Assembly (NCBI GenBank): GCA_000826855.1
Contig: JTLS01000028.1
Location: 1 to 41,495 of the forward strand
Length of the DNA stretch: 41,495 nucleotides
DNA from: Basidioascus undulatus
Lineage: Eukaryota
Reading direction: 5' to 3'
Positions 2,330 through 28,840 of the stretch are shown in pieces. A program made the position numbers and the translations under genes. The notes under the pieces are model-generated. The model did not search any database. It was not told the DNA's origin and was given only the letters and a program-made list of their open reading frames with translations. The first letter of the stretch is position 1. The number at the start of each line of letters is the position of its first letter.

Positions 2330-2949
2330 TGGCTTGAGGACCGGAGGGGAGTGGGGAGCGTTCGGAGCGATGTGCAAGGGAATGAGGGTTTTTTTTGGTT
2401 TCACTGATCTATCATAAGCGTTCACCGTACACCTGTGTCTTGTCCCCGACGGCTATTCAGTCCTTGCCCGTTCGACGGACACGACGCACGGTTAGCGGAG
2501 TTCGACGGACAGATTGACGTTCCAGCTGTCTTAGTAAAAACGCGAGTTGACCGCAAGAACACTACTGGTTGCCCAGCAATGGGCATTGGGCTGCATGCTG
2601 CAGCCGCGGGGATGCATGAGGACCCAGTAATGTTGCGGACACATTCGGCGGAAGCAGCGTAATCGTTTCGAACAGAGACAAATGTTCTCGCGACATTACA
2701 GATCTACCTTGATATCCTCTCTCCCGTCTTGCAACCACCCGTCTTCCCGCCAGCGCGCCTCGCCGTCCCACCAGTATAACCTTCAGCGCGACCTTTTCTC
2801 CTTCCCTTGCGGTCCTTGCGCCCTAAACCGGCGAAGCCTTCTCCTCCTCTCCGCCCGCAAACTCTTCCTAGCACACTCCAGACCCGCGCACCTTCCTCCC
2901 CAGGTCCTCGAACGCGCCTCGAAGGGGCGACCGGACTGCGTCTGCCCAC

Positions 2950-4214
2950 TCAGTCGCTCGCCGCTCCTGTCCCTCGTAGAACTTCTGCGAGCACCTCCTC
3001 GTCCGCGTCGTCCTCGTCCAGACCTTCGACCTCTCCGTCGTCGGCCACGCAAAAGCGTGTCAGTTGCGGGAGCGCGGGCGAGCAGTGCACCGGCGCGAGG
3101 CGGCCAACGACGCGGACGCGGCGAAGCGAGGGGATGCCAGAGATGAAGGAGGCGACGGCGTTCTAGGCAGTGATTTTTTTCCAGGGAATTCGTTTGCGGG
3201 AGATAGGTTAAGGCATGAAAGATGTGGTAAGGTCGGAACTACCGAGTTCGTGTCGTCCTCAACCTCAAGCAAGTCCCCTTGCACATCGAGCTCCTCGAGG
3301 CCCCCCAACAGCTCTGCAACTCTTTTCAGATCCCCGTCGTCTGGCTGGCCTTGAAGTTGCACACCAAGCGCTTGGAGCAGCTCGGGACTGGGCAGCGATC
3401 TCGAGTCGCTGGAGAAGCCCCTCACATGTGAAAGGTTCGTAAAGACGGAGGTTGCGGAACGAGGGACAATCGGCGAACGATGGCATTTCGGCGGAGCCCA
3501 ACAGCTCGAAAACCTGAGCGACGGGTGGTCGGCGAGAAAGGCTCGCCACCATGCATGCGGCGGGGTCGTTCGAAAAAGGTTGGAACCACAGTGGAGAGGG
3601 CAGGGCGGGAGCAGGGTGGAGAGGGTTAGAACCGACGGCCCCGAGAGGACCTTGAGCGCCTTGAGCGTCGGCCCTGCGGGGGCGACGAGGGGGGGCCAGA
3701 CCGTCATACTCTGTCTCTACTTCTTAGCCCGGCCTCGGCAACCGGATGACGAGGCGCTCGAGCCGAGCAGGGACGCGGGTGACGGACGCGATCCATCCGC
3801 CCCCGCTGAGGTCAAGGGAGACGAGTGAAGCGCAGTCGGCGATAGCGAGTGGCAGGGGAGGCTCCAGGAGGGCTCGGACGATGGCGGCGACGCAGTCGTC
3901 GAAAAGGGGATAGACGTCAGGAAGGGGAGAGGGGGCCTGCAAGTCGCCGCTCAGAGTGAGTCGTCTTTGAAAAAGCAGACCGTCAGTATGAGGCTTTAAA
4001 GACGGAAGATTTGGATCGGAACGCACCTGACAAACTTTGCGGCCTCCCATTCGAGCAGGATCGAGGTGTTGATGGAGCGCAGGACACGCGGCCGGGCAGA
4101 GGAAGAGATCGAACGAGAGACGAGCGAAAGTGACTTGAGCTCGTCGCGAGCGAGAAAGGGCCTGCAAAGGTCAAGGGCGAGCGCGGTCTTGTGAGGAGTA
4201 CTACCAGAAGACAT
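2950..4214 (-). pseudogene. Degenerate F-box/LRR-like gene
   Basis: ATG 4214 gives an F-box-like segment (LDLCRPFLARDELKSLSLVSRSISSSARPRVLRSI), an intron ~4028-3968, then LRR-like segments (LVSLDLSG, LERLVIRL, LEELDVQG). These are interrupted by TAA 3724-3726 and frame switches near 3515 and 3385. 3' end approximate. Confidence 0.55.
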
Positions 4215-13944: not shown

Positions 13945-14110
13945 CGAAAGGGGTTCGCGAGAACATGCATTGATTGGCCCACATCTGGCGTTGTACTGCT
14001 CGTGGACCTTGGCCAGTGGTCGCTGTAGTCTGCCTTCCTGCCTGACAAACACTTGCAGCCTCGTAGATCTTGTTCATTATCCCTATGCACAGTACCCGCC
14101 CGCCTCTCCT

Positions 14111-15065
<955 letters not shown>

Positions 15066-15347
15066 CTATCGGAGGTGAACTCCCCGACGCAGCCCCCGAC
15101 TGCGAAGACGCTTTCAAGCAACTTTTGAGGCATGCACTCCATTTTCACGGTTGTGCACCAAGGAAATCATCAAGATATGGTTCGTGATTCAGGGCCAAAA
15201 AGGCCATTGTTCCAGCTACGTCATGTTCTGCTACAAGTCGTGTGAGCCGGGCTGCCGGCGTGGTGTCTCCAACAGCTGCGCTATCGAAACGAAACGGGAA
15301 ACGGAAGGAGAAAAAAATCGCCCGAAAACGTCGAGAAAAGGAGTCTA

Positions 15348-17643
15348 TCAATACTTTTCAAGAGGAGCAATGCCCTCAAGTCTGGCCTTGACCTGAAGTG
15401 CAAGACGCTTGCTGAAGAAGCGGCAGAGGGCCAAGTTGCTGCAGATGCGCAGTGTCAGTATCTTCTCTCCATCTCTTTGGAGCTTGCTCGCACTTACCCG
15501 CCCATCATCCACAAGTTCGGGTGCCCAGAAGGCCTCCACCTGTATGAAGAAGAACCGTAAGTGCCTGTCCCATTCCGTGAGGTATCTGCCCGCTTACATG
15601 GTCTTCAGCTCCCCCTCCGCATCGAGACCCCAGACCTCGTTCATACGAGACGCCTCAGGACCGAGGATGCGCTCGGCAGTCGTTTTCCTGTGTAGAAAGG
15701 AACAATAAGTCCGAATACCTCCTGCTATTGTTCATGTCCACTTGCATGTTCTTGTAGCCGGTTGCGAGGACAACGATGTCTGCCTTGATCTCCGTGCCAT
15801 CGGCGAAGACGATGGCGTCCTCCGTGAAGTGGTCTGAAGCAGACAGGATGTCAGAAAAGGGAATAAATATCTTTGTCGATTTGACCGGACGTACCAATCT
15901 CCTGGCCTTGCTTGACCTTGATGTGGCCGTCCGCGATGAGCTTCGAGGCGCCGACGTCGAGGTCTGTCCGAAGCTGTCAGCAACGAGCCACCACTAGGAA
16001 TGTAATGGTTAAAGCCCCCTACAGTAACCTCCACCGCGGTTGAAGTAGAGCATGAGGAAGCCACTGTCGTTGATGCCTGTACAGGTGTGTTAGAACATGC
16101 CCTTGTTGGTATGGCGAATTCGTTGCGGACTTACCGAAGGTGGTCTTGAAACCGGCTTTCGCCAGCCCGTTGAGGGTCTCCCTGTCGAGGTCGGCGATCG
16201 TCTTCGTGACATACTTGTGAAGGACCTCGTGGCAAGGGTTCGGGGTGCTCGAGAAGATAATGTCCGCATCCTGTTTGACAAAACCACAATCAGCATGAAC
16301 ACAAGCAAGCAGAAGCGACCTCTTCTCAAGCGCACCTCGGTCGGGGGACCACCCTCTTCATACAGCCCCTTGAACAGAACGCCGAGGCCGTTCTCGGACG
16401 ACCTGCGGGGAGAAGGAGTCACATCAGTAATGATATCAAGCTTCACACGCACTCAGCGAAAGTAGACTCACATCACATAGGTCGACGAGCGCTGGACGAT
16501 TGTAGTGTCGGCTCTTATGTCCCCAGCATGTTAGCTGCAAGCCCCACCAATACATGGCAGCACAATTGCTTACCCCTGTTCGACGAAGTCGTGGGCAATG
16601 TCATGGCCAGAGTTGCAGCCTGTACCACTTGACAATCAGCATCTGCCTTGTTCGCATGAGCGCAACAAGAGGGATGCAGAAACATACAGCCCACGACGAC
16701 CGCCCTAAAGAGAGTAACGCGTAAGCATGGGGTAAAGAGCTAGACATTGCCAGTGAATGTCAGAATGCTTACTTCTTGCCCTTGAACTCGCCGCCCGTCG
16801 TATGCTGGCTCGAGTGTACGAGTTTGCCCTTGAACTTCTCCTGGCCAGGGAAAGTTGGGATGTTGGGCTCGCCGGAGTGCCCAGTCGCCATGATAACATG
16901 CTTGGGCTTCACAGTGCGCTCCTCGCCGCCTGGACGGACGAGCGTGACGGTCCAGTGATACCCGCTGCAGGGTCGAAGTCTGGGCAATTTTGTGACGAGA
17001 GTCGCTCGTCAGTGGAAGCTGTGATGCGGAGAGCATACCTAGGACTCAGCGGTGGTTTCCATCCAGACGTTTAGCTCCATGGAGGCAGCCTTGGGGAAGG
17101 CATCCGTTTCAGCACACACACACACACACACACACCACCACTGTTTTCAGAAGAAAGTACCCACGTAAGCCTCAAACCAGTCGCCAAGCTTGTCCTCTGC
17201 GATACAGATAGGATAGAGTTAGGCACTTTCCGAAGGTTCAGATGAGATAACAGTGTCGTACCCGGCCGGTCAGTGAGGCGGGAAAGGGATGTACGGCAGG
17301 TGGTCGTACCATACGGGGTCGTGGAGGACAAAGAGCTCGTAGGGCTTGCGCCAGTTGTCGCCAAATCGCTCATTTTTGCTGTAATACGTAGATTGCAGAT
17401 AAGTTAGCGAGCGAATTCATACTGCAATTCGGAGTGACACACACTCAATGATCAGCGTGTCGACGTCAAGTTGCCCGAGACGAGCGCCCATAGTCAGTCC
17501 GCCCTGACCTGCCCCAATGACGAGGAACTAAGAAGGTGCCAAGAGCTCCTGTAAGCAACAGACTGTGCCTGATGTCACCTTGAACGGACCTCAGGCTCGG
17601 AGTCCAAGAAGTCCTGCTTGGCAGCACGCCGGGGTTTCCAGCT
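15348..17643 (-). pseudogene. Flavin-containing monooxygenase, C-terminal part (FAD/NADPH domains), degenerate
   Basis: FLVIGAGQGGL, GDNWRKPY...LHDPVWYDHLPY, HVIMATGHSGEP, FKGKLVHSSQH, VVVG-CNSGHDIA, VQRSSTYVM, DIVVLATGY, FFSKRLALQVKA. In-frame TGA 17272-17270 at the expected Trp of PFPxxWP; frame disruption near 16960-17040. The N-terminus is absent on this strand. Confidence 0.85.
17112..17136. repeat. (AC)n microsatellite inside an intron of the monooxygenase pseudogene
   Basis: gcacacacacacacacacacacacc. Confidence 0.9.
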
Positions 17644-17849
17644 CTGGCATGAAGCGACTGCGAGGAGCGACCCGAGCTTTCCCGGATGTAACAGATTGCG
17701 TCGCGAAGGAGGTTGCTCTAGAGATCAGATAAGAGGTATCCCTTGCGAGTGCCGGGCCAGAAGTTTCCGTCTGAACACAACCATCTTCTCCACGCACACA
17801 TCGAATGACCAATATATCGCTGTACCCATTAAATTCTTCCCTATACCAG

Positions 17850-18691
17850 CACGCGGCCTCACACCAGGCTCGTTCTGCACACTGCTGCTCCTCCTCACAC
17901 TCTTTCGGCGCCGCCGTCGCGTCCTACGACGCCAGCCACTCTCAACGCACCGTTCACACAACCATCACTTCAATTTGATCCTACACAATGCTCGGCAGTG
18001 GCTCTTAGGCTTCTCAGAGGCCTGGCTGCTGGCGACACCTTGCAAATCGGCAGCCTGTTCCTCGCCGACGGCTACTGGCGCGACTTGCTTTCGCTGTCTT
18101 GGGACCACTGCACCCTGCAGAACGCCTGTCAAGATCAAGGTCAGTCTTTCTTGATCACTTACCATGCTCATTTCCTCAAAACTCTTGCGCGTCTTTGGGT
18201 AGGCTTACCTCGATGAGGATGCTCGGCTGAAGCACGCTCAGATGTCGGCTGCGCTCGACGGCGACGCTGCCCTGGTCGAGGCTAACGAAGGCGAGTCAAC
18301 AGCTCTCCTCTAATACTGACAGAGATGCGACCGATTACTCACCTTTTCCTTTTGCACAGACTTTACCTGGGTTTAGTCTTTCTTCGTTTTCGAGACCGCA
18401 ATCGGCCGAGGCCGTGGCCTGTTCCGCCTGATGCAGACCAAAGACGGCTCCTGGAAGTGTTTGTAAGTCTTGCGAGGTTTTATTTTACCGTAGAAAGACT
18501 ACTGAAAGAAAAAAACCCTAAAAGCACAAACTTCACCGCCCTGGAGGAGCTCAAAGGCCATGAAGAGAAGCGTGGTGCGGTGCGTAGTCATGCGCTGGTG
18601 TACCGTTACGCTGAGTTCCCGGGGCTCACCAGAGTTATTTTTCGAGCAGGGTCGTCCTCTCGGCGTCAAGCACGAGCAAAACTACGATCCG
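17850..18691 (+). pseudogene. Flavin-containing monooxygenase, N-terminal part on the opposite strand, degenerate
   Basis: ARQWLLGFSEA / SLFLADGYWRDLLSLSWD / FFVFETAIGRGRGLFRL...DGSWK / FTALEELKGHEEKRG / RPLGVKH match the typical N-terminal extension of this fungal FMO family. In-frame TAG 18374-18376 and frameshifts near 17990, 18022 and 18121. Start approximate. Confidence 0.8.
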
Positions 18692-19821
18692 GTGCGACCG
18701 GGTAGTGCCCGTGATCAGCCCAACTAAGCTGAGAAGTAAGCTGCACTTCCGTTCCGAAGTGACCGTCAATCTGGGAGCCTATAGTATAACGGCGTTGGGG
18801 CAGCGGAAGTGCCACAAAACCGTGCCGAAGGCAGGCTGTCTTGCGGTCATGGAAGGAAACGCTGCACAGTTAGTCGTGACTTCACGGGTCGGGATGCCCA
18901 GTAGGAATACGTTGTCTTGAATGAACGTGGCCCGGTGAAAGGGACGGTGAAAAGGTATGGGGTCTGTCCAATTAGCTCCATTCTTACAGAAACCAGGAAG
19001 TATACAGGTCACGTCAGAATCACGCATACAGGCAGAAAACCCTGGCAAGCCGCTCGACGGTACTCTCCAAGTACTCTCACCAGCTTCGGCTGTAGCTCAT
19101 GTGGCTCTGCGAGCCGCTGCATGACTATTGACAGCGAGCGGAGATTACTTTCAATGCCCGCCAACCGCTGGCTTGCGCAGGACGAAAACACCAAGACATC
19201 ACGGTGGTGTGCGGGAGCCCGGTCCGGCCGCCGCCGCGCAGCTGCACAGTGAGTGCAGCGCAAAGAGGTCTGCGGTGTTCATTCGATGCCTCTCAACCCA
19301 AAAAAATGGGTGTTGTTCATCATTAAAAATGTTGGATATCAAAACGACGACGCATTGAAGGGACAAGCAGTCGAACATGACAGCGGGCGAGCCTTCAACC
19401 CCTTTGTTGTGTCAACGACAAAAGACACCTGCCAGTCTTTCTCCGCAGCTGGAGCACCTTTGTTTTTGCAGCTTCCGTCCTCAAGACGCAAGACAAAGAG
19501 ATGTCAGGCTTCCTTTTTTCTATAAGGAGAAAAAGGGAAAGGCTGTCTTACATAATCTTGACTACGCTGAGCGCCCGATGGTACTTAAAACCTCGTGCTG
19601 CTTCAGGCTCTTGAAAGTCCATCGCCCTCGTCTGTTTCCTTTCATCCCATCTCGTTTCTTACCCCTTCGCACCCGCTGGTCGTGCTTTCTTATTCTTATC
19701 TGTTCCACTTCAACCTGTCTCAAAATTGTATTATGCCCCTCTCTTACCCTTTGTCGATCCTTTCATTCTGTGTTCACGTGTGACTGTCGTCGCAGGCACA
19801 CAGTCTCTACGCCGCAACATA

Positions 19822-20694
19822 ATGCCTGCACCGGCCCCGCCCTCTGGAGGGATCCTCCCCACTTTCACTACCTCCCTCAGCAAGAACGCGTCTTTTCTCG
19901 ACCTGCACCCATCACCGCTGATCAGCCCGGTCCACGTCCCGCTCGCGTTCGAGCCCCGCTTTATCCACATGCTCGAGCTGGGCACCTCGCCGCCGACGTC
20001 CCCCCTTTCGCCTCTTCCTCTCAGCCCGCCCACACCCCACTTAGACTCCTCCCGAGCCCAGCGCCGCCGTCGCTCGTCCACGTCCGCCGCGACTCGTCGT
20101 CGTCCCATGCCGCACCAATGCAGCAAAGCCGATGAGCCGCCGCCGCCGCTCCCCAGGCTGCCGAAGCAGTTCCGCCCGCTTCCTTCTCAAGTGAAGCGGG
20201 ACGTGGACCTCTTCTTCGGTGCACTGGGCCGGCCGACCGTGGAATCGCAGACCGGCATGCGGACCGTCTTGAAGGGCGGAAACCCCGCGGGCAGGAAGTG
20301 GATGGATGCGGAGGAGGAGGAGGAGTTTACGTGGCTGCTGTCGAATTGCGTCAAGGACGAGTCCTACTCTGCGGTGATCGACGCTACTTCGCCGACGGTC
20401 CTCTCCCCCACCCTCCCCTATCTCCGCGCCTCGCCCGACCAACCCAAGAAGGTCCGGCCTCGCCCTCCTCCTCTCGACCTCAGCATTCAGCCCCGCCACT
20501 GTCCCCCGCTCCCCCTCGCCATCGCTGTCGAGACACCTCCCCCGTCGTGGTCTACCCTTTCCACCCCCGACTCTCTTGTCACCAACACTTCCTCGCCCAG
20601 CATCCGTACCGCGTCCAAGATCTCCGTCGCCCGCCTCTTCCAGTCCAAGGCTGTTCGGGCTGTTCTCAAGCCGCTCAAGATCGGCCAGCAGTGA
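19822..20694 (+). CDS. Intronless Pro/Ser-rich hypothetical protein (~290 aa)
   Basis: Long open frame with gene-like codon bias, preceded by a CT-rich leader and a TATAA near 19521. No domain recognised. Confidence 0.6.
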   Translation: MPAPAPPSGGILPTFTTSLSKNASFLDLHPSPLISPVHVPLAFEPRFIHMLELGTSPPTSPLSPLPLSPPTPHLDSSRAQRRRRSSTSAATRRRPMPHQCSKADEPPPPLPRLPKQFRPLPSQVKRDVDLFFGALGRPTVESQTGMRTVLKGGNPAGRKWMDAEEEEEFTWLLSNCVKDESYSAVIDATSPTVLSPTLPYLRASPDQPKKVRPRPPPLDLSIQPRHCPPLPLAIAVETPPPSWSTLSTPDSLVTNTSSPSIRTASKISVARLFQSKAVRAVLKPLKIGQQ

Positions 20695-21746: not shown

Positions 21747-23363
21747 ATGCAGTCCGACGACGTTATCTGGTACTGAAATATTGAATACAGCTGCATAGGT
21801 ATCTGCTGACGGCGGCCACTCCCAGGTCGCTCATCGGCCCCGCGAACTCGCACCAGTTCTGCTCGTACAAGGTCAAGTGCGTACACCTTCCACTTTTCTT
21901 GCAACTGGCTGTTCGCTTAACGCTGGCTCTTTCTGCAGGACCACCACCCAAAACTTCTGCCGGAACGAGTACAATGTTACTGGCTTGTGCAACCGCCAAT
22001 CCTGTCCCCTCGCCAACTCCCGTTATGCCACCGTCCGCGAGCACCAGGGTGCGTGGCTGTCGAACTCCGCCTTCCGCTGGAAGCGTTGCCGCAGACTGCA
22101 GTGGAACTGACGACTGTTCCCGCAGGCGTCCTGTACCTCTACATGAAAACCATCGAGCGAGCCCACACGCCCGCGAAGATGTGGGAGCGGATAAAGCTCT
22201 CGAACAACTACACCAAGGCGCTCGAGCAGGTGCGTGCCACCGCTTCCGTTCTGTCCTGCCGCTGCACAGCTCACTGATACGGGCGGGTAATGTGGCTCTG
22301 GTTATGGAACAGATCGACGCCAACCTCATCTACTGGCCCAACTTCATGATCCACAAATGCAAGCAGCGTGTGACGAAGATCACCCAGTACTTGATCAAGA
22401 TGCGGAGGTTGCGGAGCAAGGAGCAGTGAGTCCTTTCTCCCTATCGCTGCTAGATGTCAGAGAAGGGTCGTTGGAGCCGAGGGGTGGTTGGCTTGCACAC
22501 CTGATGTGCGGCGCATGCTGGACCATTCTGAGATTCCACTACCCCTCGCGCGGATGTTCCCTCGATCCCGGCTTTCTCGTCCCACCCATTTTTTGTCGCC
22601 ATCGCGTGCTCAACGTACCTTTCTTCCCATTTCATAGGGTCAAGCTGGTCGGCATCAAGAAGAAGCTCGACCGACGGGAGGCGACTCGCGAGCGCAAGGC
22701 GCTCTCGGCGGCGCACCTCGAGCGCTCGATCGAGGCCGAGCTCATCGCGCGTCTCAAGTCAAAAGCGTACGGAGACGCGCCGCTCAACGTCAACGAGGAC
22801 GTCTGGCGGAAGGTGCTCGAGGCCGAGCGGGAGGAGCTTGGCGAGGGTGTTGAGGAGGACATGACGGACGAGGACGAGGAGGACGAGGACGAGATTGAGG
22901 ACGAGGAGGAGGAGGAGGAGCGCGAGTTCGTGAGCGGGGAGAGCGACTTCGAGAGCGATGTGGAGGACTTGGAGGACTGGGAAGGCGGCGAGGTGAGTCC
23001 TGCTTTGGGGCTGTGTCGAGTCCAGGACTGGAGAGCTGAAGGCAGGGTTTGGATGGGACAGTTTGCGGAGGACGACTCTGATGCGGCATCAGAATCGGAG
23101 GTGTCGGAGGCCTCCGAGTCTTCTGCGTCGGAGGACGAGGACGCGCCAGGGCCTTCGAAGAAGCGGAAAGCGCCATCGAAGAAGGGTCCAAAGAAGCCTG
23201 CGAAGCGGAGTGCGTCCCCTAACTTCTTGTCTTATTCTCCCCCACTCGGTACGGACGACGTGACTGACTTACGAGAATCGATGTTGCAGGAGGTCCCCAC
23301 GTCGAGGTGGAGTACGAGCAGGAGACGGAGCCGCTTACCAAAGAGGCGCTCATGTCTTGGTGA
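21747..23363 (+). CDS. MAK16: Ribosome biogenesis protein Mak16, multi-exon
   Basis: [95 protein letters not shown], acidic tail, VEVEYEQE. Confidence 0.97.
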
Positions 23364-24280
23364 TGCATGGGATGAGGCTGTTGCCGTGGTCCCCATCTTA
23401 TCGCTTTTGCCGCATAGCCAAGCTGCCATGAGTCTGCTACGCGTTTGCTACCGCAACCTCCGCCCCTTTTTTCCCGCCGCCCACGCGTACTCACGGTGCT
23501 TCTTTCGGTTGATGTTGTGGCACACTATGCGATAGGCTGGATGAGCGTATCTTTCGATGTTCTCACTCATCAATCCGAACCGTCCTGACCAAGTCACCCA
23601 TCATCTCCTCGCCTCGAATCTCGTCTCAACCTGGTGTGGTTGCCCCCCTTTCGCTCGGCTTGACAGCCCTTCACAGCCACTCTGACCTCGTCTCACTGTC
23701 CAGCCGACTAATGTGTGAGTTCGGTAGCCAGTTGAACGTAAGCCTTTTCGAATAATGCATCATGAACTTGGTGGCTGGCGTGCCGGGGCGTTGTTGCATG
23801 TGCGAGTCGCTGACGGCCGGAAATCATTCCTCCCCTGGGATGTCTGGGCAAGAACGCTCTCATACTTAATCCCATAAAGGTAATGCAAGTAAGGGAACAC
23901 AGCGAGATTCGCAATCAACAAAGCAGCCACACAACCATGACAAATTGTGCCCGTCAGTGTCGCCGCCTCGCGACTTGCAGCCGCCAGTCCAAGTAGTGTC
24001 GGCCCAAGCCAACATACATCATAATCTGCCAAATCTGTTTTACTCTCGACTCGATAAAGGCTAAGGTGTTCGGCATAGCAGTGAGCGTAAGGAAGACCAC
24101 TCGGACGGCATCTTTCGGCGATTTGTACCGCTTGACCAAGTCTGCGCGGGCGGCGGAAGGCTTCTGATCCAGGCGCGCGTCGCTTCGAATCCCCCCTCTG
24201 TTCCCGCCCTCATCGCCCTCATCCCCGCTCGCTCGCCCTTACCAGACTTCACTCGAATCACCAACAAATCCCGGCTACAA

Positions 24281-26655
24281 ATGCCAGCTTGCCCTGCCTG
24301 TGGCGAGTCCACGATCGAGTACGACTCGGCCTCGGGCTCGTCATTCTGCGGCGGATGCGGTCTCGTCTTAGAGGAGAACAATATCGTCTCCGAGATCGCG
24401 TTCGGCGAGCTCAGCTCCGGCCAGGCGATCGTCCAGGGTACCTTCGTGTCCAATGATGCCAGTAAGACTCCTTCTTCACTCCGGGTTAGGTGGTTACTCA
24501 TGACGGATGGATGAACGCCATTGCAGCCAAGGCTAGCACGGGAGGGAGGCATGGAGGGAGCATGGAGTCTAGGGAGAGGACCATCGCTGAAGGTGAGCAT
24601 GCGTCAACCATCTGGTCTGGATTGCCAAAGCTCATGCGGAGGGGTTCTTAAGGTCGCCGCCGCATCCGCATGCTCGCCGCCGCGATGAAGCTGCCGGAGC
24701 GCATCGCCGAGTCGGCTCAGCGCTTCTTCAACCTCGCCATCTCGACCGACTTCATCCGCGGCCGGCGGTCGCAATACGTGATCGCGGCGTGCCTCTATGT
24801 GACGTGCAGGATAGAGAAGACGAGCCACATGCTTATCGACTTCTCGGACATGCTCCAGGTGAGTTCGTGTGCCTCTAGCATTTGCAAGGCGGAAAGTGGA
24901 TCACTCTCATGTGTCCATGAACTGGAGCCGCGGACATGTCACCAAAAAATGTTGCACATGCTGGCGTTCAGCGTCTGACGCGTCAGCCTCTTACAGGTCA
25001 ACGTCTTCGTTCTCGGCAACACGTACCTCAAGCTTGTCCGCGAGCTGAACCTCACCCTGCCCCTCATCGAGCCTTCCTTCTACATCTCCCGTTTCGCCGC
25101 GCTCCTCGAGTTCGGGGACGAGACGCACAAGGTCGCGACGGACGCGGTCCGCCTCGTCAAGCGCTTCAACCGCGACTGGATGGACGCCGGTCGCCGCCCA
25201 GCCGGCATCTGCGGCGCGTGCCTCCTGCTCGCGGCGCGCATGAACAACTTCCGGAGAAGCATCCAGGAAATTGTACAGGTCGTCAAGATCGCCGACGTGA
25301 CGCTCCAGAAGCGTCTGGACGAGTTCGCGCGGACGCCGAGCGGCGATCTGACGGTACAGGACTTCCGCACTGTCTGGCTCGAGCAGGGCGCCGACCCGCC
25401 GGCGTACACAGCCGGGTTGGCGCCGAAGAAGAAGAAGGGAATGGACGGGAAGAAGGGAAAGGGAAGGAGAAGGAAGGAAGACGCGGACGACGTGGAGAAG
25501 AGTGTCAAGACGGAGGCTGGCGGAGACGAGGACAAGGAGGACGAGGGCGAGGAAGACTTGCTGGGCGAGGACGAACAACCCGAGATGGACCAGCTATCCT
25601 CCCCGCCAATCTCGAACGGCAAAGGGAAGGGCCGCGCTCTACCGCTTCCCACCTCCGCCACGCCCGCGCCCACATCCTCCGTCGACGACCCTACCTCATC
25701 CGCCTCTGCCGACGCACCCGCACGAGCCCTAGCCACTCCCCTCTTCGGATCTCTCGACTTCACTACCCCTCAACAACATTCCTCCCCATCGACCTCGCTC
25801 GCCCCCGCCGCGGCCTCCGAAGCAGACGCGCTAGTCGACGCGTCCATCTCGGCCGAGGTCGAGTCTTTTCTGCAGAAGGACGCCGAGGCGGCGACGCTCA
25901 AGGACCAGCTCGACAGCGCCGAGACCGCGCGGCTGGCGGCTCTGCAGGAGCAGGAGGTGCAGGACGAGCTTGCGGGACTGGACGAGGACGAGCTGGACGC
26001 GATGATCTTGACCGAGAACGAGGTGCGCATCAAGGAGCGCGTGTGGGTCGAGTTCAACAAGGATTACTTGGAGAAGCTGGCTGGTAAGTCCTTCGTACGC
26101 ACGGGCTTCGCGCTGCTGGATGATGCTGACCGGATACTTTTCCCTGCAGCCAAGCACGCTGCGCAGGGCGACGACCCCAAGCCGGTCGAGCGGAAGAAAG
26201 TGCGTTTCTTGCAACGTCTTGTTCACACGCCTCCTTCGCTCACTTAGTCTTCCTTCACAGCGCAAGCGCAAGAACAAGGACGCCTCCGCCGGCCCATCGA
26301 CGACAGCCGCCGCGTCCGTGACGGCGATGGTGAAGCAGAAGAAGCTCTCGAAGAAGATCAACTACAACGTTATCGAGAACCTGTTCTCCGACGGCAAGAA
26401 GCGCGAGGGCAGCACCGCGGCCGGCAGCGGCGCGGAGGACAAGGATGACGAGGGCCCGGAGGTGGTCGACGTGGAGGACGACGGCCACGCTGCAAAGCGT
26501 GCCAGGTTGGACGACGATGACGATAAGGGTGAAGAGAAGGAGGACGAGGAAGACTACGGTACGTGTGCCGTATCCCTTTCGCGTCGCTTGTCTTTAGATG
26601 TTGGCTAATGTTCTGCGGTTCCTTCGCAGGCGAGGGCGATGACTACTGGGATTGA
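24281..26655 (+). CDS. BRF1: TFIIIB subunit Brf1, multi-exon
   Basis: Zn ribbon CPACG...CGGCGLVLEENNIVSEIAFGE; cyclin folds (FIRGRRSQYVIAACLYVTCR, DWMDAGRRPAGICGACLLLAARMNNFRRS); EVRIKERVWVEFNKDYL; KKLSKKINY. Confidence 0.97.
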
Positions 26656-28231: not shown

Positions 28232-28731
28232 TCACTCAACGGCGATGCGCTGCGCCGTCGGCGCCTGGATCTTCGGGTACGTAACGCGCAAGACGCCGTC
28301 CTCGAGCTTGGCCTTGATATCCTCCGACTTGAGGCCCTGGGGAACAGGCAAGCTACGCGAGAACGACCCGAAGCGGCGCTCACGGACGATGTGCCCGCCT
28401 TCGCTGGTCTCCTGCTCCGATTTGGTTTCGCCCGAGACGGTCAGACGTCCGCCGTCGAGGTTGATGTGGATGTCCTCCTTCTTGATGCCTGGAAGCTCGA
28501 GGGTGGCTGTGATGCTGTCCTTATCTTTGTGCACGTCGAGCCTGCGAAGAAGAAATAGGGTGTCAGCCGTTTGCAGAAGAGCCGGAGGGCGGAGACGTAC
28601 TTGGGGCGAAGGAGCGCCTTCGTGAGCGACTGCTCGTAGGTGTTGCGGGAAGCGCCACCAGAGCGCTGGGAGACGGCCTCGTCGAAGAAGCGCTGGAAAT
28701 CGGCGAAGGGGTCGGCGAAGATGAGGGACAT
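28232..28731 (-). CDS. Small heat-shock protein (HSP20/alpha-crystallin), 2 exons
   Basis: MSLIFADPFADFQRFFDEA...LRP | LDVHKDKDSITATLELPGIKKEDIHI...RERRFGSFSRSLPVP...IKAKLEDGVLRVTYPK; one GT-AG intron ~28599-28542. Confidence 0.95.
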
Positions 28732-28840
28732 TGTGGGTCGTTGAAAGTGATGTGTTGCAGCGGAATGCGAATGCGGCTGCGAGTACGAGAGCGAGTTGCG
28801 AATGCGAGTGGATTGTCCCTCACCAGGTGTGAACTCAGCC

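Follow-up and report, generated by a model that had tools for sequence, protein, structure and literature searches.

A monooxygenase gene split between two strands

How does a single flavin monooxygenase (FMO) gene come to lie half on one strand and half on the other? We asked this of a window of 41,495 nucleotides, the complete Basidioascus undulatus contig JTLS01000028.1 (C1999; assembly of 32 Mb in 2,992 contigs). An earlier interpretation made from the letters alone (hereafter the sequence-only reading) had placed an FMO N-terminal half on the + strand and a C-terminal half on the - strand, and six-frame reading confirmed this arrangement. Exons of the N-terminal part occupy about 17866-18686 on the + strand and end in RPLGVKHEQNYD. 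On the - strand, SWKPRRAAKQDFLDSEPE begins at about 17643-17648 and is followed by an intron, by FLVIGAGQGGL and, at 15348, by the stop. Six homologous proteins aligned with tblastn were divided in the same way, their N-terminal residues matching + frames and the remainder - frames. The window is intron-rich and its best named protein matches are fungal; Pfam searches returned no family for two of the four short exon queries.

A search of the same genome identified a single close copy, which lies on contig C1510 (3,657 bp). This copy runs in one direction throughout, from an outer promoter (1552-1808) to a stretch at 1808-2884, which is the collinear counterpart of window 17645-18686/18687 at 71% identity, and on to 2888-3657, the counterpart of window 17648-16877. 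Because C1510 is collinear across both breaks, it is the window segment that is inverted, and homology fixes the ends of the inversion to a few bases. The two segments had been described as contiguous in fungal FMOs of this type. They are so in the C1510 paralogue, and the alignment runs straight over the break in all eight homologues tested out of 39 matches. Two separate paralogue fragments can be ruled out as the source of the halves, because these map, together with the split promoter, to non-overlapping stretches of a single paralogue. A distant family member on contig C1027 was likewise ruled out as the partner, with only about 24-48% amino-acid identity.

The possibility of misassembly at the junctions, already raised in the sequence-only reading, was examined in genomic runs from two studies (X1 and X2), which were compared with the window over 14000-20000 together with a third run (X3). 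All three consist of contigs, which drop rare variants and for which no strand is given. In both X1 and X2, one unbranched contig of 11,802 bp covers 16928-20000, including both junctions, with no differences and at single-copy depth. All records compared with the window, five in X1 and six in X2, are single collinear pieces without differences. None of these 11 records changes strand, so that a single orientation is seen at the level of contigs, from which rare variants have been dropped. The 1,043-bp inversion at 17645-18687 is real. To judge from the equal length of their contigs, X1 and X2 probably represent one strain and therefore speak to the existence of the inversion, not to its spread.

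The inverted segment (17645..18687, + strand) comes from a dead gene copy and comprises its core promoter, its 5' UTR, exons 1-5 and the beginning of exon 6. The outer upstream region of this copy (18690..19165, - strand) has kept its original orientation and aligns to C1510 1358-1808 at 65-79%. One break thus lies upstream, approximately 90 bp 5' of a TATA-like word, and the other within exon 6. An inversion of about 1.05 kb in one gene had been proposed, and both its size and its restriction to one gene were borne out; its right end lies at 18687 and not at about 18695. That the promoter and first exons were flipped is supported by the collinear counterpart of the whole segment on C1510.

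Inversion junctions

The best-scoring ends of the inversion range over 17645-17650 and 18682-18687. At the left junction (17645..17648), TGGC matches the C1510 promoter at 1808-1811 and, reversed, exon 6 at 2888-2891, giving a 4-bp overlap with a direct match on both sides. At the right junction (18687..18689), the overlap would be 3 bp, as ATC could serve the outer promoter as well as exon 6. It matches the C1510 promoter directly (1806-1808), and its exon side follows from the 99-nt exon length, with one of the three bases equal to that of the paralogue. Both junctions would be accounted for by a promoter break and an exon break, each joined via three shared bases. Chance alone can also produce microhomologies of 3-4 bp.

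When window 18650-18689(+) is joined to 17648-17590(-), it aligns gaplessly to exon 6 (99 nt) of the C1510 paralogue, in agreement with the earlier statement that the halves fit without gap or overlap. This 99-to-99 alignment counts ATC and GGC on both sides of the respective junctions. Turning the segment back in silico leaves exon 6 short by 6 nt. Re-inversion had been expected to join the halves in frame; it does keep the frame, but the product lacks two codons. Because bases were lost at the joins, the inversion represents a fixed change, as opposed to a reversible switch.

The junctions were searched for repeats. The longest inverted repeat within 60 nt is 6 nt, a length that 472 of 500 random pairs also reach. 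The junction flanks agree at 15 of 51 in-register positions. Among the 25 longest of 41 repeats, none is an inverted or direct repeat near the junctions.

The sequence-only reading had further proposed that a phase-0 GT at 18692 acts as a splice donor and CAG at 17646-17644 as the acceptor. Neither proposal holds. The GT belongs to the outer promoter, in a stretch with homology to C1510 1751-1808, and the CAG is a Gln codon inside the exon, CAA in the paralogue. Exon 6 of the paralogue reads HGQNFGRQSWK and has no intron at the break site. Since the break lies inside exon 6, GT and CAG are inherited non-splice sequence and not evolved splice sites.

A probable tandem pair collapsed in the assembly

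The - strand half contains a segment of 817 bp (16141..16957, exons 11b-16) that is near-identical in both copies and is collapsed in the assembly. In the genomic runs, this stretch forms a contig of its own, with a depth of 105 vs 48-52 in X1 and of 43-50 vs 14-18 in X2. The first 75 nt and the last 81 nt of C1510 are identical to the two ends of 16141-16957. A second shared tract, also on the - strand (15622..15735, 114 bp), matches C1510 476-589 exactly and is again a separate contig, with a depth of 107 in X1 and 55 in X2. The 2.5-3x repeat depth in X2 may be noise or may reflect a third copy. One base is known to differ in the shared tracts, at a silent Pro position (16856 in X3), where the X2 contig breaks.

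Just one linear path makes use of all parts of the repeat graph; it would lead from the 5' part of the window through the repeat to C1510, through the repeat again and into the 3' part of the window. Under this tandem path, the unit absent from the window measures 4,318 bp. The spacer of C1510 resembles the 3' flank of the window gene at 871-1058 (window 15312-15121, with weak scores) and at 1044-1099 (window 14481-14429), two of the three 3'-flank scores barely exceeding those of shuffled sequences. It then resembles the promoter at 1358-1808 (window 19165-18687). The spacer therefore passes from 3' flank to promoter, which fits the junction expected between tandem copies.

No read spans the 817-bp repeat, and record 13, a spliced contig of X3 described below, is itself assembled. 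The pairing of 5' and 3' parts follows from the graph logic together with the lesion pattern and the matching depth of the RNA contig. The window would accordingly be a chimera, in which the assembly wrongly joined the dead 5' part of one copy to the live 3' part of the other.

One dead and one live copy

Lesions are found in the 5' part of the window and the 3' part of C1510, and none were found in the C1510 5' part or the window 3' part. We aligned the dead copy exon by exon to the model of the live copy. In its N-terminal exons (17866..18686, + strand), the start codon ATG has become AGG (17866-68), the donor of intron 1 is deleted (about 17933), the acceptor of exon 2 has changed from AG to AC, exon 2 carries a -1 and then a +1 frameshift, and a TAG stop occurs at 18374-76 (codon 111). 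In exons 6b-11a (16958..17648, - strand), there is a TGA at 17272-70 (codon 255) with an adjoining 8-nt deletion, a TAG at 17041-39 (codon 288) and a net +1 frameshift at 16978-16958. Taken together, in the window 5' and C1510 3' parts the ATG has been lost, one donor is deleted and acceptors are broken, and the coding sequence contains frameshifts as well as three in-frame stops.

Stops and frameshifts had been reported for both halves. Within the window they are confined to 16958-18690, and 15348-16957, which belongs to the live copy or is shared, is free of them. The start codon and splice sites are broken and the three in-frame stops present in either orientation of the segment. With these lesions and no inverted repeats, a dead gene is indeed far likelier than a working switch, as the sequence-only reading had judged.

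The complementary combination, C1510 5' with window 3', yields a model of 22 exons and 1,812 nt that encodes 603 amino acids without internal stops. All 21 of its introns are GT-AG or GC-AG, and the model is 42-63% identical to all eight homologues tested. In the window, this copy is represented by exons 16b-22 and the stop codon (15348..16140, - strand), which contain no lesion and include a GC-AG intron at 15688-15745, and by the 3' UTR of the mRNA (15182..15347, - strand), where record 13 ends.

Although X3 bears the label 'DNA?', its contigs over 14000-20000 have their introns removed and thus represent spliced sequence. For these records, 15 of 21 joints are displayed and 21 pieces are undisplayed, so our statements concern the pieces listed. 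Record 13 (2,061 nt, depth 37, introns removed) combines C1510-type 5' letters with window-type 3' exons and shows no other letters over 15348-16140 among the pieces listed. With some piece ends assumed, it alone explains 17 of the 20 X3 depth bins checked. The live copy is intact and is expressed as a spliced transcript.

History of the gene pair

Outside the shared tracts, the copies differ with a dS of 0.54 and a dN of 0.087 over 362 codons. The resulting ratio of 0.16 suggests that selection acted on both copies for the greater part of the time since they separated, and that the upstream copy died later. The dN/dS of 0.24 in the inverted exons, vs 0.09-0.13 elsewhere, may merely reflect a more variable N-terminal domain.

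From these observations we propose the following history. In the distant past, an FMO-type monooxygenase gene would have undergone tandem duplication. The upstream copy would have remained functional for most of the time since and decayed later. One of its lesions would be a one-off inversion of 1,043 bp that broke the gene just ahead of the core promoter and again within exon 6. Either end joining or a double template switch may have connected the ends via microhomologies of about 3 bp, at a total loss of 6 nt. The downstream copy would have stayed intact and expressed. The shared tracts include introns, differ by one base and are bordered directly by lesions at their edges, which argues for recent gene conversion. 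The live copy was probably the donor, homogenising the 817 bp and 114 bp. Because these tracts are near-identical, the two copies were collapsed when the short reads were assembled, and contig C1510 would represent the missing unit of 4,318 bp. We therefore regard the locus as very probably the fixed scar of an inversion in a pseudogene that arose by tandem duplication, whose intact, expressed twin is concealed by the collapsed repeat next to it. It is an ordinary pseudogene scar and not a switch.

Microhomology-mediated end joining is known to yield microhomology junctions in one-off rearrangements. Such junctions are also a feature of the MMBIR model, for which the consulted portion of PMC2621351 gives overlaps of 2-5 bp near low-copy repeats in one-off rearrangements. 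Judged against that portion, the locus described here has probable overlaps of 3-4 bp and shares the adjacent low-copy repeat and the non-reciprocal character. It differs in being a simple inversion with two junctions, for which template switching and end joining leave indistinguishable sequences. Among the titles and abstract beginnings searched, we found no fungal precedent for such a case, which does not imply its absence from print.

The gene drawn in the window does not exist as such, and annotation would score the monooxygenase as dead. The division of an intact, expressed copy between two contigs is a caution for work with such assemblies. The twin copy also allows both junctions to be read at the level of single bases, as a tidy example of what is probably a microhomology inversion inside a gene. 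Nothing at this locus points to programmed inversion or trans-splicing in a fungus, and only a regulatory effect of the dead copy on the live one would give it larger significance.

Alternative explanations

Could the inversion nonetheless be an artefact of assembly? The assembly is fragmented into its 2,992 contigs, a true collapse lies 700 bp away, and X1 and X2 may both be the source of this DNA. Considering that both genomic runs, from two studies, have an unbranched contig of single-copy depth over the junctions, and that these lack any repeat able to cause a misjoin, we hold an artefact to be exceedingly improbable. It is highly improbable, too, that the window is correct as one locus and that C1510 with the repeat forms a separate locus or a circle. 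The assembly joins the window in this way and no read crosses the repeat, but both ends of C1510 enter the same 817-bp repeat and the spliced contig combines C1510 5' with window 3' sequence. With two separate loci, both copies would be half dead and the intact mRNA would be left without explanation. A reversible DNA switch would account for a segment that contains a promoter and first exons and that joins in frame when turned back. Its probability is vanishingly small given the missing inverted repeats (6 nt at best, with 15 of 51 in-register matches), the six lost bases, the single orientation in the X1 and X2 records (none of 11 in the second) and a start codon, splice sites and three in-frame stops that spoil both orientations. 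According to the excerpt of PMC10028968 available, bacterial intragenic invertons require inverted repeats and an invertase; they share with this locus the cut in the coding sequence and the flipped promoter, but here inverted repeats and a second orientation are lacking, bases were lost and the gene has decayed. There is likewise next to no chance that the halves are trans-spliced via the GT at 18692 and the CAG at 17646-17644. Both lie in phase 0, and the live gene does use donors of the GTGCG type, yet the collinear paralogue has an uninterrupted exon 6 at the break, with promoter DNA in place of the donor and a Gln codon in place of the acceptor. The product would, moreover, have lost its start and would contain frameshifts and stops.

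The remaining alternative gives the dead copy a function. In the snail Lymnaea, antiNOS pseudogenes derive from a duplicated NOS gene in which an internal inversion led to antisense RNA (PMC3537157, in the part of the article consulted). By analogy, transcription that follows the old gene strand would run through the inverted exons and yield antisense RNA, which could pair with the mRNA of the neighbouring live gene. The geometry fits this precedent, as here too a duplicate with an internal DNA inversion lies as a pseudogene near its working relative; exons 2-5 are 77-85% identical to the live mRNA, and traces of spliced RNA occur in X3, at a depth of 2.3 for the 3' end of the dead copy and of 2.57 for the outer promoter. 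As far as the consulted part of PMC3537157 allows the comparison, the present case differs in that the inversion carried off the core promoter and that only trace RNA is seen. The core promoter has been flipped away and its TATA-like word altered, the trace RNA amounts to about 1/15 of the live level, and the record from the outer promoter would fit splicing on the + strand, which is the wrong strand. The inverted segment has no exact match of 22 nt to C1510, making it poorly suited to silencing. An antiNOS-like role is thus very unlikely. We give an equally slim chance to the wider proposal that the inversion turned the dead duplicate into a cis-linked regulator of its neighbour, acting by antisense RNA or transcriptional interference, with gene conversion still homogenising part of the copies.

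Trace RNA from the dead copy

The X3 record with a depth of 2.3 has the C1510-type 3' letters expected of the 3' end of the dead copy, and one intron has been removed from it. The record with a depth of 2.57 covers 18804-18902 in the outer promoter. By depth arithmetic, its other 52 letters, on an undisplayed piece, would fall within 18623-18803, a placement that would fit a 68-nt + strand intron at 18736-18803. The simplest reading is that the flipped promoter fires weakly in both directions. Of all results, this trace RNA is the least comfortable for a plain reading of the copy as dead. X3 coverage has a gap at 17819-18220, over dead exons 1-2, to which we attach no evidential weight.

The enzyme encoded by the live copy

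Searches with single exons pointed to one solved structure, that of JsFMO (PDB 8ACS). It was the sole structural match of exon 2 (to 8ACS residues 39-72, E-value of 2e-4) and of the exon with the His-Asp pair, and the best of 33 for the exon with the FMO motif. In the live model, GAGQGG occurs at residue 196 of 603, leaving room for the N-terminal extension of about 160 residues that precedes the FAD-binding GxGxxG. The consulted part of PMC10028610 lists the catalytic His-216/Asp-217, Tyr-458 and the cofactor-associated Arg-363 in JsFMO. Their counterparts in the live model would be LHD at 237-239, GGGYYLDVG at about 475 and VQRSS, with positions matched by hand and a probable offset of 16 residues. 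Among solved structures, the exons thus match best a type II FMO with an N-terminal extension, a class for which Baeyer-Villiger or heteroatom oxidation with NADH or NADPH would be expected. With the type II enzymes named in that part of the article (JsFMO and FMO-E/F/G of Rhodococcus jostii RHA1; PMC10028610), it appears to share the His-Asp pair, the active-site Tyr and the Arg. It differs from them in being a fungal gene with 21 introns, of which the window shows the 5' part as a pseudogene. The FMO motif FxGxxxHxxx[YF][KR] is represented in the live model by FKGKLVHSSQHT, in which the core is present and the last two positions deviate. The 8ACS chain likewise has H at the aromatic position of this motif.

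Assembly of the tandem monooxygenase pair

The tandem monooxygenase pair is collapsed in the assembly at window positions 16141-16957, together with positions 1-3657 of C1510, a second contig of the same genome. Owing to this collapse, 4,318 bp are absent from the window, and the window contig and C1510 each hold part of the working gene. Across 15622-15735 and 16141-16957, read depth was 2.5-3x that of the flanks in genomic run X2 and 2.1x in genomic run X1. The higher repeat depth in X2 may represent noise or a further copy.

Within the live copy, a GC-AG intron at 15688-15745 (- strand) is supported by a spliced contig. The dead copy, the upstream pseudogene with the inversion, carries a mutation at this GC donor. 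The live gene also contains a 17-nt micro-exon at 16688-16704 (- strand). Intron 9 of the dead copy carries a CA/TG microsatellite (17106-17144), which is absent from the corresponding intron of the live copy.

Transcription and the downstream gene

Because introns are missing from its contigs at the joints listed, the third run, X3, behaves as an RNA run, despite its label 'DNA?'. A trace RNA record lies at 18684-18902. Depth arithmetic suggests that a 68-nt intron in the dead copy's old outer promoter is spliced from this RNA on the + strand, and the trace looks as it would if the flipped promoter were still firing weakly.

At 1044-1099, the C1510 spacer carries a short leftover of the next gene downstream, matching window positions 14481-14429. 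This remnant suggests that the duplicated unit once included that gene, most of which would since have been deleted. From its motif, we take the frame at 14286-14976 (- strand) to be a cytidine-deaminase-like gene. A few X3 bases fall between 14286 and 14428, and these fit a micro-exon of ~8 nt near 14360.

Related gene and genomic neighbourhood

A third, distant monooxygenase of the same family (L007; G000:C1027, 2000-5493) is collinear, with different intron positions. Reading frames presumably resembling MAK16 (21785-23535), the TFIIIB subunit Brf1 (24921-26608) and a small heat-shock protein (28232-28819) form what we assume to be ordinary housekeeping surroundings.
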